Notes: generated by a model from the letters alone, not told the origin. Positions 7,157 to 17,030 are shown, numbered from the stretch's first letter. The stretch is 64,000 nt of DNA from Candidatus Micrarchaeota archaeon (GCA_021816885.1 JAKAWS010000003.1:5091-69090), one strand, 5' to 3'. A program made the numbers and translations.

Positions 7157-7399
7157 CGTCTACCATCGTAAAAAAGAAAGAAATTTTATCTGTTTGATAA
7201 TCGGATTTTAGATTTATATCCCTTTTGGTATGTCGGTAGGATGGGAGGGATCTGTCCTGGAATGGTTGCCCGAACCAGCCAAAACCAGCAAGCAAAAGGC
7301 ACATACAAAGTATGCGATGACAGAGATAACTTTCCATGGCACAGTAAATGATTTCGACAAAACCAATGTTTTTATACTATTGTTTGCCATCGTATCGCG

Positions 7400-8437
7400 A
7401 TGACAATGCAACAGTGCAGGAACGAAGCGAACGCCACTTCGTCGCAGATTTCCCAGAGAGAGATAAATAAATTCATCCGGAAAAGGTCTGGCCAAAAACC
7501 GATTCTCAAATCATCCGGGTTTGCAACAGGGCATCGAAAACCTTCCGGAAAAGCGTTTCGTCAGAAAGCGCAGTCAGCGATGGAATATCTGATGACATAC
7601 GGGTGGGCGATACTCATCATCGCGATTGTGCTGGTTGCGTTCTTCTCCCTTAACCTCTTCAACCCATACACGTTCTCCCCGAAGGCAAGTCCGGGAAGCT
7701 GCCAGATACTAAGACCGAACGGGCCGGGCAGCAACCTGTTCGTTTCTGCGGTGGGACCGACATGCACCACCAACGAGATACCGCAGTATGTAGCCAAGTT
7801 TAATGGAGTGAGTAGTGTCATCAGCACCGGAACTGCCGGACTGCCTATTGGCTCAAGTTCTTTTTCCGTATTTGCGTGGATAAATATTCCTTCAATAATT
7901 CCTACATATTATTCTATTTATGATTATGGAAGCTCAAATACTGGGAATTATATTGAGTTATGGATTAATGGGCAGTGTTCTCCTTCTCCTTGTTTAGCCC
8001 TAAGCACTACTTCCAGCGCCGAACGTGGGCAGTACCTAGATCCATTGATAACATCAGGAGCATGGAAACTTGTAGGGTTTACTTATTCTGCTGGAGCAAC
8101 TACTCAGACATTTTATACCAATAACGTTGCAAATGTCACTTCATGGGGCATACTTACTACGTCATCCCAGATACCGTCATATATTGGTGACGGGCACTGG
8201 GGCAGTCTTACCGGCCTAATCGCAAATGTGCAGATTTACAACACATCCTTATCTCAATCAGAGGTTACTGCATTGTACCAGGAAGGTATCGGAGGTGCGC
8301 CAATAGACCTACGGCACCTCGTCGGTTGGTGGCCGCTGAACGGGAACTCGAACGACTACTCCGGAAACGGCAACAACGGCGTTCCTACCAATGTAATCTT
8401 CACATCCAACTGGGAGAATGGCTACAGCAGCCCGTGA
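7400..8437 (+). CDS. Pilin-like protein with a class III (prepilin-type) signal sequence and a LamG/concanavalin-like domain
   Basis: KAQSAMEYLMTYGWAILIIAIVLVAF matches the archaeal type IV pilin/archaellin N-terminal signal. The C-terminus has the LamG-type motif GSLTGLIANVQIYNTSLSQSEVTALYQEG. The true start is uncertain: the ATG at 7400 gives a 54-aa basic leader, and the internal ATG at 7580 is the alternative. Confidence 0.6.
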   Translation: MTMQQCRNEANATSSQISQREINKFIRKRSGQKPILKSSGFATGHRKPSGKAFRQKAQSAMEYLMTYGWAILIIAIVLVAFFSLNLFNPYTFSPKASPGSCQILRPNGPGSNLFVSAVGPTCTTNEIPQYVAKFNGVSSVISTGTAGLPIGSSSFSVFAWINIPSIIPTYYSIYDYGSSNTGNYIELWINGQCSPSPCLALSTTSSAERGQYLDPLITSGAWKLVGFTYSAGATTQTFYTNNVANVTSWGILTTSSQIPSYIGDGHWGSLTGLIANVQIYNTSLSQSEVTALYQEGIGGAPIDLRHLVGWWPLNGNSNDYSGNGNNGVPTNVIFTSNWENGYSSP

Positions 8438-8624
8438 ATGTATCTATGGTTTGTTGTGTTGGGTGAATCCTAATCCCTGACGCCGTGGTTATTATCAGTA
8501 TCCTGCCCTACACAAAAGGTTTATGGTTTGTCAGCCATATGCGTAAAGCGGTTTTGATGTGCCTGCATACAATTGCAACCCCTTAAAATTTTTCCATACA
8601 AATATAATCAGATCAGAACAAGAC

Positions 8625-10396: not shown

Positions 10397-11557
10397 CTAA
10401 GGCTGCATCCAGTCAATCTCATAATACTCATACTCGCTTCCAGGCAGGTCGATCTTCTTTATCTTGTAGTAAGTGACGGATGTCTCTCTATCGGCAATCG
10501 CCACTACAAGTTCAAGCTTTCTCGATTTCGACTCCTTTATCATGCTTGAAAGCTCTGCGCCGCCTATATAGGAACTTTCCGTCAGAGAAAGCATCGCGTA
10601 AGACGGAGCGCTGTGCTCTGGAGACTCGCTGTCCCCTCCTTTCCTGTGATAGAGCACAAAGTCTATCTCCTCATTTTTCTTCCTGCTCTTTCCAGGTATC
10701 GCAAGTATGAACGTCTTTCTTACAGAATGCGCGACCCGTATGGCTCTTGACCACTCCGAAGTCAGTAGTTTCTGGTCCTGCGGAAATACATGAAGGACGT
10801 GCTTGGAATGGGTCCAGTTCTCATCCTTTATCGGCTTTGCGCCAGGGAAATATATCCTAAAGTGCGTTCCAAACTTAAAACCAGTCTTTACCACATACCC
10901 TTTCTCTCTCCAGTCTGCATACACCTCATACAGCTTCATAAAATCCTGCCTGCGCTTCCTGGCAGCATCTACTATCTCTTTCTTGCTAAAGCCATCTATG
11001 CTCAATACCCCTTTATCTATAAGGAAGACCGCTTCGTATATATCGAGCTTGTTCAGAATCCCTCTGTCGCTAGCTTTGTAAGTGCCATACTGGCCTAGCC
11101 AGAACTTGTCGTATATCTCCTTCCCCTTTTTCTGATCGTCGATTATGACTGTTAGGTCTTCTGGGAAGAATACTCCTTCGAGGCTTATTCCTCTCAGGTT
11201 CAGGTTTGATGCAGGATACCTTTTTATGGGTGTTCTATCAGATCCAGACTCGTGGTCCGGTTGTTTTATCACGAGTCCTCTGTCTCTCCAGTCCTTGAAC
11301 GTGAAATATCTCGCCATGGACTTCTTCGAACTGAGCCCTTTCGCAATCTCGTTAAAACTTACACTATTTCCTAGCGTATCTGTGCACGAAGCGTTTCTCA
11401 CATCAATCAGATAAAGCGCCTCAACTAGATCCAGATGCAAAAGACCGGAATCCAACCTTCCGAAAGAGGTGCGCCTAAGGTTGTCTATCGTAGACTGGTC
11501 CTTCACAAGCGCCATGTGCGCTTTCCTATCATATATTATCTCAAGCATGCAGTCCAC
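10397..11557 (-). CDS. endA: tRNA-splicing endonuclease, multi-unit (epsilon2-like, three-unit) form
   Basis: 386 aa. The central unit carries the catalytic signature YADWREKGYVVKTGFKFGTHFRIY (Tyr/His/Lys triad region). An N-terminal EndA-like unit (LVEALYLIDVR...) and a C-terminal degenerate unit (HVLHVF...VAHSVRKTFILAI) flank it. The length matches the three-unit enzymes reported from ARMAN-type archaea. Confidence 0.8.
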   Translation of the reverse strand: MDCMLEIIYDRKAHMALVKDQSTIDNLRRTSFGRLDSGLLHLDLVEALYLIDVRNASCTDTLGNSVSFNEIAKGLSSKKSMARYFTFKDWRDRGLVIKQPDHESGSDRTPIKRYPASNLNLRGISLEGVFFPEDLTVIIDDQKKGKEIYDKFWLGQYGTYKASDRGILNKLDIYEAVFLIDKGVLSIDGFSKKEIVDAARKRRQDFMKLYEVYADWREKGYVVKTGFKFGTHFRIYFPGAKPIKDENWTHSKHVLHVFPQDQKLLTSEWSRAIRVAHSVRKTFILAIPGKSRKKNEEIDFVLYHRKGGDSESPEHSAPSYAMLSLTESSYIGGAELSSMIKESKSRKLELVVAIADRETSVTYYKIKKIDLPGSEYEYYEIDWMQP

Positions 11558-12315: not shown

Positions 12316-15072
12316 CTATCTATGCATCCAATACTTTTTATTCTTTATAAAATTTTTCTGCGCGTCTATCAGATCAGTATAAAAAAGCCTATGGTCATCA
12401 CGCTGCATCTTCAGGGCACGGGCTGCGGTCCTGGGTCCTACGCCGTAAGTGGCAAGCGCGACAGCTGCCTTTCCGCCATACGACCGGAAGAGCCTTGCCT
12501 CTATCATCATCTCGCTATAAGCCTTCATGTCAGCCCTAGTCATCTTTTTTTTGCCCTTTGACTCTGAGATTACCTTTCTGTAATTGTCCGTATAAGTGCA
12601 AAGCATGGCGCTTTTGCAGTTTGGGCACTCAAGCTTTTCCGCATCCTGTACCTCCAATATCTTTCTCTGGAAAGAAAGACCGCAATAAGTGCAGAGCAGT
12701 TTCGCTTTCTTGGAAGAGGTAAACTGTATGAACGACTCGAGAAGCGCGGCGTTCGGCCTTATTGGCATGATGAGCTCTTTTGTGTGATAATCCGAGTTGA
12801 GGATGCTGTCTGAAAGCGGAGAAAGTTTTCCAGAAGAGAACTTTTCCAATCGCAGCGTCCCTTTTCTTATATCGTCAAAGAACCCCTTAACGACTTTATA
12901 ATCGAAGTAATTGTCTCTTATCTCCCTATATGCTTCGAGCCAGACTGGGGTGCCTTTGAATATCTCCACAATCTTCTTTGCTGTGTTCTTAGAGAGACTG
13001 GCGCCCCTCTCTATTATTCCGAACCTTTTTGCTATCTCTACAAACTTATAATTGAAAAGGCTGGTTCCTGTTATAACGCTCTCCGCCGTCTTATCTATGT
13101 TAGAGCCGGAAATGTCTGAGAGAACGGCTTTCATGTCAAACCTATCGCTCTCCACAAAGATAAGATACGGGGAAGCTTTTGTGTTAGCGCTTGATCCCGT
13201 CCTTTTGGTAATCATCGTTCCAAGCAATTTCGATATGAACTCGTTAGCTCTGGTCCCCAAGAAGGTATAAATTACGGTATATCCTTCCATATTCTCTACT
13301 GCCACAGTTCCCCTTTTTAGCGGAAAAAAGGCAAGCTGGCCCAACACTAGCTCATCTACCGCGCGCGCGCCAAAACCCGCCGCCCTTTCTATAATATCGA
13401 GGAATCTTTGTGCGACACTAAAACTGACCGGGATATCCTCTCCGTACCAGTCAGGCACTGCCGCCGACACATCTGTGCACGGCTCGACTGTTATAACGTC
13501 TTTCTCTATGTCTATGACCTTCCAAGGCAGCCCTTTCGTTATGAAAACAGATGATTCAGAGACATTGCCCAGCACGAACTTTTCGTCAAGGAACGAGACT
13601 ATCTTCCCGTTCGCTATGTTCTTTACCTTGAATCTTATGCTGTCAGGTATCGCGCTCAGGTGCTCGTAATAATACATACGCGTTCGGCCTGTGCCTCTGC
13701 ACAGCTTGTCGTCTAACAGGATCATGTGTTGCTCATGCATAAATTTCAAAAGAGTAAGCAATTCTTCCTCTTTGATGTCCTTGTAAACGAATGACCTTTC
13801 GAATATATCCTTTATGCGCTTCAGATCAGTCGCGCCATTCTCTGCCAAAAGGCCGCATATCTGATGGGCAGCAATGTCCAAAGCGCCGAAATTCGGACTG
13901 AAACTCTCTAGCTCGCCATTTCTTGCATTTTCTAGCACCGCCATCGACTCTATGTAATCTACCTCGTTAAGCGCTATTACCGAGCCTTTCGATATCTTCC
14001 TTATTGAATGCCCACTCCTCCCCATCCTCTGAAGGAGCCGCAGCGCCTGCTTAGGCGAACCATACTGTACCACAAAATCAATGCTTCCTATGTCTATCCC
14101 TAGTTCAAGCGAACTTGTAGAGATGATCGCCTTCTTGCCCCTTTTTTTGAAAACAGCCTCAAGTTCTGCCCGCTCATCCTTGTCTAGAGAACCATGGTGC
14201 ACACCTATTCCTCCAAAACTCTCCAGCTTATCGAGATAAAGCAACCGACTCCCCAATGCCTCCACTACCTGTCTTGTATTTCCGAATATGAGACAAGAGT
14301 CTGATTTTTTGATGTGTTCGACTATCGCGTATATTCTGGCAAAAGAACCCTCATCAAGTCCAAAGAATTCTTCAAACTCTCTGTTCCTTGAAGATTGCGG
14401 TACGCTACGCGGCAACTCGATCCTTATATCTGGGACTCTCTGGGCATCTACTCTCGAAATCACACAATCGCGCCTTCCGCAAAGGAATTTTGCGACCACG
14501 TCGTCATCGTCCACTGTTGCGCTTATCCCTATCCTCTGAAAATCTCCGGCACGTTCGACCAAACGCTCCAAGGCGACAGACAATTGCGCCCCTCTCTTAC
14601 TGTAATAAAGTTCGTGTACCTCGTCTACAATGACAACCTTCAGATTCTTAAGATACTCTCCGATATACTTCGTGGGAAGTATGCTCTGTAAGGTCTCTGG
14701 TGTGGTTATCATTATATCAGGTGGATTTCTTATCTGTCTGGACCTCTCACTCTGTTTTGTATCTCCGTGCCTTACCCCTACCTTTAATCCAGAATGTTCG
14801 CATAGCTCTTCAAACCTGCCTAACATATCTCTGTTGAGCGCCCTTAACGGGGTAATATAAAGGACAGATATAGGCGCAGAGCCTCTTTCTTTCAGCATCT
14901 TTATTGCAGGAAGCATCGCGGCTTCGGTCTTGCCAGTGCCCGTGCCTGATATTATAAGGCAATTAAGACCCTTCTCTATAATGCCGAACGAGGCCTTCTG
15001 CACATCGGTAAAGGCTCCATGCTTGGATATGAAATAATCGTAGATATCCTTTGCGTCCGGCATGGCTACCAA
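12316..15072 (-). CDS. lhr: Lhr-type ATP-dependent DEXH helicase
   Basis: 918 aa. Walker A GTGTGKTEAA, DEVHEL box, helicase C, long Lhr-core C-region, and a C-terminal Zn-ribbon (CTYCG...CPNCKS). Confidence 0.8.
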   Translation of the reverse strand: MVAMPDAKDIYDYFISKHGAFTDVQKASFGIIEKGLNCLIISGTGTGKTEAAMLPAIKMLKERGSAPISVLYITPLRALNRDMLGRFEELCEHSGLKVGVRHGDTKQSERSRQIRNPPDIMITTPETLQSILPTKYIGEYLKNLKVVIVDEVHELYYSKRGAQLSVALERLVERAGDFQRIGISATVDDDDVVAKFLCGRRDCVISRVDAQRVPDIRIELPRSVPQSSRNREFEEFFGLDEGSFARIYAIVEHIKKSDSCLIFGNTRQVVEALGSRLLYLDKLESFGGIGVHHGSLDKDERAELEAVFKKRGKKAIISTSSLELGIDIGSIDFVVQYGSPKQALRLLQRMGRSGHSIRKISKGSVIALNEVDYIESMAVLENARNGELESFSPNFGALDIAAHQICGLLAENGATDLKRIKDIFERSFVYKDIKEEELLTLLKFMHEQHMILLDDKLCRGTGRTRMYYYEHLSAIPDSIRFKVKNIANGKIVSFLDEKFVLGNVSESSVFITKGLPWKVIDIEKDVITVEPCTDVSAAVPDWYGEDIPVSFSVAQRFLDIIERAAGFGARAVDELVLGQLAFFPLKRGTVAVENMEGYTVIYTFLGTRANEFISKLLGTMITKRTGSSANTKASPYLIFVESDRFDMKAVLSDISGSNIDKTAESVITGTSLFNYKFVEIAKRFGIIERGASLSKNTAKKIVEIFKGTPVWLEAYREIRDNYFDYKVVKGFFDDIRKGTLRLEKFSSGKLSPLSDSILNSDYHTKELIMPIRPNAALLESFIQFTSSKKAKLLCTYCGLSFQRKILEVQDAEKLECPNCKSAMLCTYTDNYRKVISESKGKKKMTRADMKAYSEMMIEARLFRSYGGKAAVALATYGVGPRTAARALKMQRDDHRLFYTDLIDAQKNFIKNKKYWMHR

Positions 15073-17030
15073 CCAAGATGTTTTACGGTAAGATATGCGA
15101 TTATCGTTAGCATGGCCAATATTATCCCGAAAATAAGGTATGATTCGCCATAATCAAAGCTGACCTTTCCGCCTACGCCGTATGCAACCTCAAACGGTAT
15201 CGACTCTCCCCTGTAAACCGCGATGCCGCTGACTTTGCCATACGGGACATATTCCATCATATAGCTTCCATTTCTGCCGCTGTAAACATTACTGGTAGTG
15301 CCGTTATCAAAGTCAAGTTTAAGCGAGGCATTTACTGCACCGCCATAGAAGTTCGTGGTCTTTATCAAAACAGGGTAAACTGGAAGGACTAGTTTTATGG
15401 TTCCTGCGCCAGCAATGCTGACCGTTCTGTTGAGGGGCATCTTATAACCAGCCACGTCTATAGATCCCATATAATTATCTCCTAAGGGCAGATAGGTGCT
15501 CCTTTGCATTGTCATATTGTCCACTTCGATGGAAGAGAAGCTTACATTCTGCCCTCCTTCGCTGACGACATCGAGAATCACATGCACCATAGGCAGGAAT
15601 CCGGCGCGGAGGTCATAGCCCTTATTCATCTCTAAAGAGCCGTTTTTGCCGTGATATCCATTGCTCCAAGAATAGAAACCGATAATTCCTCCGTCAGACG
15701 AGCTTATATTGGTAAAGTTCAGCGAGAAGTTGGCAATAGATCGGTTGGCATACCATCCAGAGCCGGTCACACTCCCATATTCAGAACTCAGATTAAGAAA
15801 GTATTCGGTTTTCCATACTGCAGTCACATTAACCGGTGATTTTATCGATATGTAATTTCCAGAATATGTCTTGTTCGCAGTCGTCCATCCATCAAACACA
15901 TATCTAGTAGAGCTGTTTGCATATAGCTCCGAAGAGTTGATCCCTAACCGGACCAAACTGTTATTGTCATACCAACCAGATCCCGTAGCGTTCGAGAAAT
16001 TCGAGCTTACATTCACAAAGTACTGTAGCTGCCACACTGCACTTTCGGTGATTTTGCCGTATACCACAACCGTTGCAGATGTAGAGTTCCCTGTATATGA
16101 CCTAAACCCGCTACCTTTCCATCCCACGAAAACTTCGCGCTCCCCTGTTGATATATTGACTGCGTTTGGTTCATATAAGCTTACTCTGCTTCCAAACGTA
16201 TAGTTCGCAGAGCTCTGATTGCCGAACCCTGAACTCACACTGACTTCATATCCCCTATTCCACATGACCGTTCCATTTTTCGGAATAGGGAGCCCAGAAC
16301 CTACCTCGAAGTAATCAGACTCGTTGTTTAATTCCTCTACCCCATACTTATTTATCAGTGCCTCCTTGCTTGAAACCCCATACCCTACATAGGAATAAGC
16401 GCCAGGGACGCTGACCTCTCTTCCATTAAGATATACAGAAAAGTTCCTGAACCTCACAGGTATCATGTATGTCTGATTAGTGCTTGCATTCGCATATTCT
16501 CCTACTACATACGGCGCATTATTGCCAGAGTCCGGCACACCTGCATTGACACTTCCCAGCAGTTTTCCGTTTAAGTACGCCTTCCATAAAGTCCCGTCAG
16601 GCGATACGGAATAAGTGTTGAATGTTCCATTGCTCCCCAAACTGACATTGCTAAAACCGCCATAGAAACTTTGTTCGCTGTTGGTGCTCCTAAAATACTC
16701 GAAAAACCAATACGGCTTGCCGGCTTCCATATATATCTTAGAGGAACAGCCGCCAGAAGTGCAATTATTCGGATACTCCCCTGTCTTACTTTCTACTGCA
16801 TAGCCGACCTGGACGAAGGCGCCATTCTGGAGGTTCTCCCCGACCCAAAAAGCGATAGAACCATTTGTTATATTCTGTCCATATATCGTCTCTATCTGTA
16901 CTGAGATCCCAGAGTTGTTCGAAGCTGTGCCGTTTGCAATCACCCCGCTTTGGAACCAATACTGGGAATAACTGAGATGCGCGCCGACTAGCAGCACCGT
17001 AAATAAAAATACAGCTACGCCAAGTTTCAT
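15066..17030 (-). CDS. Secreted, probably heavily N-glycosylated cell-surface protein with a C-terminal TM anchor
   Basis: N-terminal signal peptide MKLGVAVFLFTVLLVGAHLSYS, more than 40 N-x-S/T sequons, C-terminal hydrophobic anchor IFGIILAMLTIIAYLTV. No recognisable catalytic motif. Confidence 0.5.
   Translation of the reverse strand: MKLGVAVFLFTVLLVGAHLSYSQYWFQSGVIANGTASNNSGISVQIETIYGQNITNGSIAFWVGENLQNGAFVQVGYAVESKTGEYPNNCTSGGCSSKIYMEAGKPYWFFEYFRSTNSEQSFYGGFSNVSLGSNGTFNTYSVSPDGTLWKAYLNGKLLGSVNAGVPDSGNNAPYVVGEYANASTNQTYMIPVRFRNFSVYLNGREVSVPGAYSYVGYGVSSKEALINKYGVEELNNESDYFEVGSGLPIPKNGTVMWNRGYEVSVSSGFGNQSSANYTFGSRVSLYEPNAVNISTGEREVFVGWKGSGFRSYTGNSTSATVVVYGKITESAVWQLQYFVNVSSNFSNATGSGWYDNNSLVRLGINSSELYANSSTRYVFDGWTTANKTYSGNYISIKSPVNVTAVWKTEYFLNLSSEYGSVTGSGWYANRSIANFSLNFTNISSSDGGIIGFYSWSNGYHGKNGSLEMNKGYDLRAGFLPMVHVILDVVSEGGQNVSFSSIEVDNMTMQRSTYLPLGDNYMGSIDVAGYKMPLNRTVSIAGAGTIKLVLPVYPVLIKTTNFYGGAVNASLKLDFDNGTTSNVYSGRNGSYMMEYVPYGKVSGIAVYRGESIPFEVAYGVGGKVSFDYGESYLIFGIILAMLTIIAYLTVKHLGW

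Follow-up and report, generated by a model that had tools for sequence, protein, structure and literature searches.

Where does translation of a gene begin when its class III (prepilin-type) signal lies deep inside the open reading frame (ORF)? The question is posed by a gene at 7400..8437 (+) in a 64,000-nt stretch of DNA from Candidatus Micrarchaeota archaeon (GCA_021816885.1 JAKAWS010000003.1:5091-69090), the whole of which is called the window below. A sequence-only reading of this DNA had described a pilin-like protein of the LamG type with an overlong leader, and had left three options for it: a start at the internal ATG 7580, a non-canonical start, or an unusual pro-region. The ORF exists as described and its product, translated from the window DNA, has 345 amino acids (aa), among them the motif K56-A57-Q58-SAMEYLMTYGWAILIIAIVLVAFF. 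The class III motif is likewise genuine and not a product of chance, with Q+1, A+3 and E+5 invariant in the family; only its placement at residue 54 has to be amended, as the segment KAQSAMEYLMTYGWAILIIAIVLVAF begins at residue 56. The class III cleavage signature reads K56-A57/Q58-S-A-M-E62, followed by YLMTYGWAILIIAIVLVAFF, with cleavage predicted between A57 (7568-7570) and Q58 (7571-7573; position +1).

Residues 138-289 match the Pfam hidden Markov model (HMM) PF13385 Laminin_G_3 (E=7.9e-13; 49.2 bits against a gathering cut-off of 27.6), and a profile search of the PDB matched the protein to LamG-like chains. In the AlphaFold2 model, made with 92 family sequences (mean pLDDT 73.5), the leader is of low confidence, a confident helix covers aa 59-83 (pLDDT 84-93) and a confident beta sandwich covers aa 131-280. 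Foldseek places the sandwich close to pentraxin, LamG and concanavalin A-like folds (E about 1e-9; target TM about 0.7). Judged by HMM and modelled fold, the gene can be counted among the LamG/concanavalin A-like lectin superfamily, and the proposed fusion of a class III-signal (pilin-like) protein to a LamG-type lectin fold is borne out.

A protein database search with the window protein returned 2946 relatives, and a scan of GTDB species-representative genomes found more than 444 family loci, nearly all of them in Micrarchaeota metagenome-assembled genomes (MAGs) and with several copies per genome; the placement in Micrarchaeota is based on the source names of a few database matches together with the GTDB loci. 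The window ORF is one copy of this large family, which consists of type IV pilin-like proteins and is specific to Micrarchaeota; in its members a class III signal and a short hydrophobic helix precede a LamG/pentraxin-like sandwich, with a hypervariable core held between conserved arms. The cell-contact role suggested for the protein is plausible in that the gene belongs to a Micrarchaeota (DPANN) genome.

The cleavage motif and the leader

Class III signal peptides are processed by PibD, FlaK or EppA, and Q+1 together with E+5 belongs to the EppA/DUF361-like subgroup. The motif and its codon usage were compared at 103 distinct family sites. Q+1 is present in every one (CAG in 59, CAA in 44), as are A+3, written with four codons, and E+5; S+2 is found in 101 sites through six codons drawn from both serine codon families, and K or R at -2 in 91 sites, again through six codons. 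Position -1 is Ala in 37, Ser in 30 and Leu in 28, and no conservation is seen upstream of -3. Across the mature N-terminal block Q, A, M, E, Y, L and W are invariant, and substitutions fall 9, 11 and 52 times on first, second and third codon positions (p=2e-11), an excess at the third. These codon patterns indicate that Q+1, S+2, A+3 and K/R at -2 are under protein-level selection. Because they are kept through synonymous codons, translation begins upstream of -2, and the pattern of conservation marks the -1/+1 boundary as the probable processing site. Leu at -1 is unusual among known PibD/FlaK substrates and may point to a peptidase of different specificity.

Upstream of ATG 7580 the only canonical in-frame starts are ATG 7400 and ATG 7406, with no GTG or TTG, and the nearest in-frame stop lies at 7349. 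The start at 7400 had been recognized correctly, but not as one of two, ATG 7406 having been missed. From these starts the leader would span 57 (or 55) residues with 7 K, 6 R, 2 E and no D, which agrees with its earlier description as very basic (13 K/R) and as far longer than characterized class III leaders, of about 3-30 aa; the short leader typical of class III signals is thus not found.

The region in front of ATG 7400 is shared with other copies. In the non-syntenic paralogs L002, L003a, L003b, L104, L106 and L005/L100, DNA similarity to the window sets in abruptly at about 7350, some 50 nt 5' of ATG 7400, and the shared stretch includes the TATA box TTTTTATA, a motif that also stands 5' of other window genes. 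This box and a GATG about 26 nt 3' of it are invariant in all AG-type leaders, the divergent L025 included. TATA-like hexamers at promoter distance occur in roughly half of the family copies examined, and a (noisy) spacing histogram places them 20-39 nt 5' of family in-frame ATGs regardless of leader length. The TATA-to-ATG spacing fits leaderless or nearly leaderless mRNAs. An AGGTG resembling a Shine-Dalgarno (SD) sequence, present at many window genes, is absent both before 7400 and before codon -6. A separate 57-aa ORF at 7230-7403 (+), called in three assemblies, overlaps ATG 7400 by 4 nt; it covers the promoter, paralog conservation reaches no further upstream than 7349, and it is unlikely to be a real gene.

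Used as a protein query, the 57-aa leader retrieved only P0121, a copy at the same locus truncated by an insertion sequence (IS), and a metagenome scan with the leader 19-mer GATAAATAAATTCATCCGG gave 15 matches, all unrelated and due to chance, with no new type-1 leader loci. A structured RNA was considered for this segment and ruled out by the lack of an Rfam match and a fold z-score of +0.5.

Other members of the family were informative about leader length. In about half of 80 loci found independently of gene calls, the distance from Q back to the closest in-frame start is 3-12 codons, the commonest start position in the family being an ATG at -6 (15 of the 103 sites). In many other loci of the 80 the start lies 15-36 codons before Q; there the leaders consist of conserved basic repeat modules and no other start codon is available, those of 16-36 aa holding just one possible ATG. 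The leader MKAFRKGNSQREFHQSFRS, for example, stands directly before Q in four genomes. Judging by these reading frames, long leaders are a trait of the family, and the 57-residue leader of the window gene is probably real. Many of the leaders that carry no dinucleotide repeat are assembled from the basic modules KTFRKSFIK, KLLGKASAK and ETFRESFIK, which vary in number and order over 16-40 aa (examples are P0044, P0050, P0057, P0087 and P0098, and L021, L033 and L052); this is a second, in-frame kind of variation in leader length.

Dinucleotide repeats and the hypervariable core

Repeat polymorphism, together with a frame that stays open from the repeat to the cleavage site, is a feature of the family. 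The tract lies between the conserved promoter-proximal ATG, the presumed start, and Q+1. It is (AG)4 in the window, L004, L105, L104, L002 and L003a, (AG)7 in L003b and L106, (AG)9 in L100 and (AG)11 in L005; the last two, which come from different samples, are identical over 3220 nt save two AG units. At the window locus itself no repeat polymorphism is seen (the window, L004 and L105 all have four units). In a second, unrelated leader group the repeat is (AC)n with n=4-14, translated as THTHTH; the MFEIVLG... subtype of this group includes both ON alleles (P0022 with n=11 and P0067 with n=14, numbers inferred from the count of TH dipeptides in the called proteins) and OFF alleles (L101 with n=10, L102 with n=13 and L103 with n=4). 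Dinucleotide tracts with n>=6 number 14 in 320 kb of Micrarchaeota DNA, and every one of them is found on the coding strand 39-108 nt 5' of a family Q codon, the 14 copies being homologous and hence not fully independent. Two marks of a contingency locus are therefore found in the family: a repeat number that varies between near-identical genomes, giving in-frame and out-of-frame alleles, and an enrichment of repeats at family loci (14/14).

In the segment between repeat and Q of 18 repeat-bearing loci, stops number 0 in the pilin frame and 30 and 26 in the other two frames, so that this segment is kept translatable in the pilin frame. The chance of a stop-free pilin frame is roughly 1e-4 to 1e-5 by our own estimate, which uses the stop density of the other frames and treats about nine unrelated leaders as independent. 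A change of one repeat unit gives a full ORF from an upstream ATG in 10 of the 12 OFF alleles, a weak test in that either alternative frame is one step away.

The mature protein varies in a different manner. In a MAFFT alignment with 91 homologs, the window protein is 72% identical over the N-terminal block (aa 58-136) and 75% over the C-terminal block (aa 272-345; 8213-8434, of which the part 8316..8437 forms the last third), against 22%, and at most 35%, over the core (aa 137-271). The best local BLASTP match of the window core has 45% identity, and GC content falls to 0.34 in the LamG core. Taken alone as a protein query, the LamG core found nothing at E<=0.001, and protein searches revealed neither a close relative nor a donor copy of it. 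The same gyrB-adjacent locus was recovered from other samples (L004 and L105) with flanks 99.2-99.5% identical to the window, and there 7808-8315 shows zero nucleotide similarity to L004 (3409-3916) or to L105, with identical breakpoints. The core is exactly 508 nt long in both the window and L004, and those of L004 and L105 are about 95% alike. The core has thus been replaced between near-identical strains at one locus. A diversity-generating retroelement was rejected as the source of core variation, as no reverse-transcriptase-family Pfam match was found in the ~55 window ORFs and the differences are wholesale and not adenine-limited.

In a fourth allele of the locus (L107; MAG GCA_027332765.1), an IS element with a DDE transposase cuts the gene after codon 87. 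Its segment 3262-4700 corresponds to the window from 7661 onward, the inverted ends of the IS are CAGTAGTTCCGC and GCGGAACTACTG, and the downstream genes differ and encode Fic-domain proteins. Because of this insertion and the different downstream genes, the gyrB-adjacent locus is a rearrangement hotspot. The ~94 nt that follow the stop codon (8438-8531) are 76-81% similar by blastn in L002, L003b, L005, L100 and L103, and may be a shared terminator or 3' untranslated region (UTR), or a recombination arm.

The family also leaves its trace in the assemblies. Two independent ones of the window locus, L001 and L105, end 75-145 nt 3' of the gene (at about 8510-8580 of the window), and for many family members the contig is just 1-2 kb long. 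Assembly is probably interrupted by this repeated family, whose copy number is then likely to be underestimated. Tandem same-strand pairs of family genes occur in L002 (1974-2876 and 3001-4038) and L003 (1074-1835 and 2592-3608); in the latter pair L003a has GTG at -6 and a stop in its leader, and L003b has GCG and an in-frame (AG)7. The NCBIfam model 'TafC family fimbrial protein' gave a sub-threshold match within the LamG part (window aa 212-299; E=6e-4; cut-off 410 bits), and residues 125-241 of P0051 matched it weakly as well (E=8e-6, below the same cut-off).

Where translation starts

The explanation that we favor, and to which we give about an even chance, is that ATG 7400, on a leaderless mRNA, serves as the start codon of the window gene, and that the 57-aa basic leader is disposable, carries the repeat and is cut off between A57 and Q58. 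Transcription would start about 26 nt 3' of the conserved TATA box, at or beside ATG 7400, and translation of the resulting leaderless mRNA from this ATG would produce a 57-residue, basic and poorly constrained leader. A FlaK/PibD-type prepilin peptidase would then cut between A57 and Q58, and the mature protein, starting with QSAMEYL, would be displayed in a pilus or at its tip as an adhesin or lectin. The leader would owe its length to its role as a disposable carrier of a dinucleotide repeat placed between start codon and cleavage site. The length of the repeat would set the frame, and slippage in the sister alleles would switch the gene ON or OFF while leaving the mature protein unchanged, because the repeat sits in the cleaved leader. 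The (AG)4 allele of the window, being in frame, would be ON and is probably stable. Of the three options left by the sequence-only reading, it is the unusual pro-region that is best supported, and a non-canonical start has found no support. The multigene family, the hypervariable core and the repeat tract had all escaped that reading.

Tentatively, and with a confidence that stays short of even, the family as a whole may be seen as a Micrarchaeota contingency system in the manner of bacterial pathogens, made up of dozens of scattered lectin-pilin genes with interchangeable LamG cores and with (AG)n/(AC)n slippage in a cleaved leader. Should this hold, phase-variable loci based on simple repeats would here be described in Archaea for the first time, with host-cell contact or the evasion of pilus-binding viruses under their control; the limited set of literature searched contained no account of simple-repeat phase variation in archaea or of the leaders of this family.

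Several results weigh against translation of a cleaved leader from ATG 7400 and against its switching. Pilin and class III signal HMMs (Pfam PF04021 Class_IIIsignal and its relatives, and NCBIfam) gave no match, the limits for Pfam being E<=1 for the full ORF and E<=10 for a short-leader homologue and an N-terminal fragment, and for NCBIfam E<=1. Neither a prepilin peptidase nor a pilus ATPase was found among the ~55 ORFs scanned in the 64 kb of the window, and we know of no class III leader of 57 aa that has been characterized. The (AG)4 tract of the window is short and no commoner there than expected by chance, and of 10 repeat loci in the GTDB sample, which is unbiased, 2 are in frame, again the chance level. 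At codon -6, where the window has GCG, L002, L003a and L005/L100 have a GTG, which would give a 6-aa leader at the modal start position of the family. Of these GTG-type alleles L002 is in frame with the upstream ATG, L005/L100 are out of frame, and L003a carries a TAG between ATG and repeat, so that the short-leader start is its only option. The GCG at -6 recurs at four loci, in six sequences that come from several samples; all six have ATG 7400 in frame (n=4, 7, 4 and 7 at the four loci), which supports the long leader, but this in-frame state is partly an effect of ascertainment, as the GCG-type loci were found via proteins called with a long leader. Substitutions in the leader by codon position number 5, 4 and 9 within the GCG type (p=0.11, a sign of weak constraint), and 11, 11 and 10 or 15, 12 and 7 between allele types, with no third-position excess, in a test that is underpowered and not significant.

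These allele comparisons bear above all on the alternative that 7400-7552 is a 5' UTR and that the real start is a short one (ATG or GTG at -6, or TTG at -3), lost here by a change from GTG to GCG. The window copy would then be silent, a pseudogene in the making or a reservoir of LamG cores, and ATG 7400 would be incidental. We hold this to be unlikely. In its favor are the GTG-type alleles themselves and the L003a gene, which is intact despite the stop in its leader, as well as loci that have no start codon at all (L025, L062 and L065); and the leader peptide is barely constrained, as a UTR would be, because codon periodicity is missing from the substitutions between allele types. The sequence-only reading had counted as a refutation any homologs with a conserved short leader whose start codon this ORF lacks through a sequencing or frameshift artefact. 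Such homologs do exist, and the artefact does not, given the recurrence of GCG across loci and samples. The four distinct GCG loci, however, retain intact ORFs of 319-345 aa, all in the ATG frame, and their mature N-terminal region is under strong purifying selection (5, 7 and 37 substitutions by codon position; p=2e-9). A UTR would moreover not stay open from repeat to Q as the 18 repeat-bearing loci do, and GTG -6 is not preceded by an SD-like AGGTG, unlike many window genes.

The second alternative concerns the fate of the protein and not its start: it would be no pilus subunit but a membrane-anchored or bindosome-like surface lectin whose signal is only of class III type, or whose N-terminal anchor stays uncleaved, and the long basic segment would then be a cytoplasmic tail. 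This is improbable as well. Besides the lack of a pilin HMM match, it is favored by the absence of pilus genes adjoining the window locus or the other loci examined, by the searches against solved pilin structures, which gave no sequence match outside the LamG part, and by the 28 sites with Leu at -1, generally regarded as uncommon in PibD/FlaK substrates. Against it stand the invariant Q+1 and E+5 and the K/R at -2, placed immediately in front of a ~22-aa hydrophobic helix; this is the signature of class III processing, reportedly set out by Szabo et al. 2007. The sequence upstream of -3 is unconstrained, as expected of a part that is removed. A study of Micrarchaeon Mia14 reports that type IV pilus systems and a FlaK-like peptidase are encoded in Micrarchaeota, with linkage of some LamG genes to pilus loci (PMC5498576).

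A near-cognate, non-canonical start close to the cleavage site, which would restore a leader of normal short length, is very improbable. A tolerance of weak starts is suggested by L006, L102 and L103, in which -3 is CTG and not the TTG or ATG of other members, but in the window no ATG, GTG, TTG, CTG or ATH occurs within the 22 codons that precede Q58, the nearest ATT being at 7502. Codons -6 to -1 of the window read GCG TTT CGT CAG AAA GCG. Almost no credence can be given to a start at ATG 7580 (MEYLMTYGW..., with no n-region and no processing needed), which is excluded by translation upstream of -2. All family members have M+4, which gene callers often take as the start, but calls at MEYL or MTYGW come from copies that lie at a contig end or whose ATG is out of frame.

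The locus and known systems

The features of the gene and its flanks are listed in Table 1. Its neighbors are housekeeping genes (gyrA, gyrB, VKOR, an HD protein, a tRNA-splicing endonuclease and dph5). The tRNA-splicing endonuclease ORF at 10397-11557 (-) has 386 aa, about twice the usual subunit size, in keeping with the multi-unit, single-chain form known from ARMAN-type archaea. A 654-aa ORF at 15066-17030 (-), between the genes for an Lhr-type helicase and a D-aminoacyl-tRNA deacylase, has no Pfam match at E<=0.01.

Table 1. Coordinates of features at the locus, counted from the first nucleotide of the window
Feature	Position	Strand	Basis
Conserved core promoter block	7349..7399	+	Abrupt paralog similarity from ~7350
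TATA box TTTTTATA	7369-7376	+	Centre about 26 nt 5' of ATG 7400
Basic leader of 57 codons, predicted to be removed at A57/Q58	7400..7570	+	Only canonical in-frame starts at 7400 and 7406
(AG)4 tract, short in-frame form of the polymorphic repeat	7455..7462	+	Homologous tracts in sister alleles
Codon -6, GCG (GTG in sister alleles)	7553..7555	+	Allele comparison
Mature N-terminal block: Q58-SAMEYL, helix aa 59-83, linker ending QYVAKFNG	7571..7807	+	Conservation
Hypervariable LamG core cassette, variability peak aa 137-271	7808..8315	+	Allele and homolog comparison
Conserved C-terminal block LVGWWPLNGNSNDYSGNGNNG...SSP and stop	8316..8437	+	Allele and paralog comparison
Conserved post-stop block	8438..8531	+	blastn 76-81% with some non-syntenic paralogs

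Little is known of how DPANN archaea recognize the host cells to which they live attached. A large, hypervariable and possibly phase-variable family of lectin-pilins provides concrete candidates for host-recognition molecules and suggests a mechanism by which specificity could change rapidly. A 2025 review of phase variation left the distribution of phase-variable loci in archaea to future work (PMC11868660). Given the loci of this family, that question could be put to the test with metagenome reads that already exist. Apparently, class III leaders can far exceed the lengths characterized so far, which bears on signal-peptide predictors and on gene callers, the latter starting many family genes at MEYL or MTYGW.

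Archaeal class III pilin-like proteins (Epd pilins of Methanococcus maripaludis, and Aap and Ups pilins and sugar-binding proteins of Sulfolobus) share with the family a basic n-region, K/R at -2, a small residue at -1, Q+1, E+5, a hydrophobic helix of ~22 residues and a beta-rich globular part. The family differs from them in its leader (57 aa in the window gene, 16-36 aa in many relatives and about 3-30 aa in the characterized cases), in leaving Pfam Class_IIIsignal unmatched, in the common Leu at -1, in a LamG/pentraxin-like globular part, and in genes that are scattered outside pilus operons.

An expansion of LamG-like jellyroll proteins was reported in Micrarchaeon Mia14 and other DPANN archaea by Golyshina et al. 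in 2017, in passages which also describe LamG genes adjoining type IV pilus loci, a FlaK-like peptidase and a proposed role in host contact (PMC5498576). These proteins belong to the same phylum and have the same type of domain; the passages concerned are silent on a class III N-terminus, on arms around a hypervariable core, on long leaders and on repeat tracts (PMC5498576).

The conserved flanks around a variable segment, and the unrelated segments with identical breakpoints in near-identical strains, resemble pilE/pilS of Neisseria. The family differs in that no promoterless silent cassettes were seen among the copies examined, in which the frame runs upstream of Q+1 and none is 5'-truncated, and in that no donor for the window core was found, so that an expression site with silent cassettes is not recognized here.

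The closest analogues appear to be the signal-peptide repeats of Neisseria opa and pilC. In opa a (CTCTT)n tract lies in the region coding for the signal peptide, and in pilC a poly-G tract does so. As in these genes, the repeat of the family would stand between the start codon and the mature protein, in the part to be cleaved, so that slippage would shift the frame and leave the mature adhesin unaltered; the family and its Neisseria counterparts are also alike as multigene families of adhesins that have hypervariable regions and recombine among their copies. The differences are that the organism is an archaeon, that the signal is of class III and not a Sec signal, that the repeats are the dinucleotides (AG)n and (AC)n, that the mRNA is probably leaderless, that the window tract has only four units and that switching is here a proposal from the comparison of sequences. 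The family would therefore combine two known kinds of system, class III pilin-like adhesins and repeat-driven contingency loci, with the start site, start codon, cleavage and switching as proposed above.

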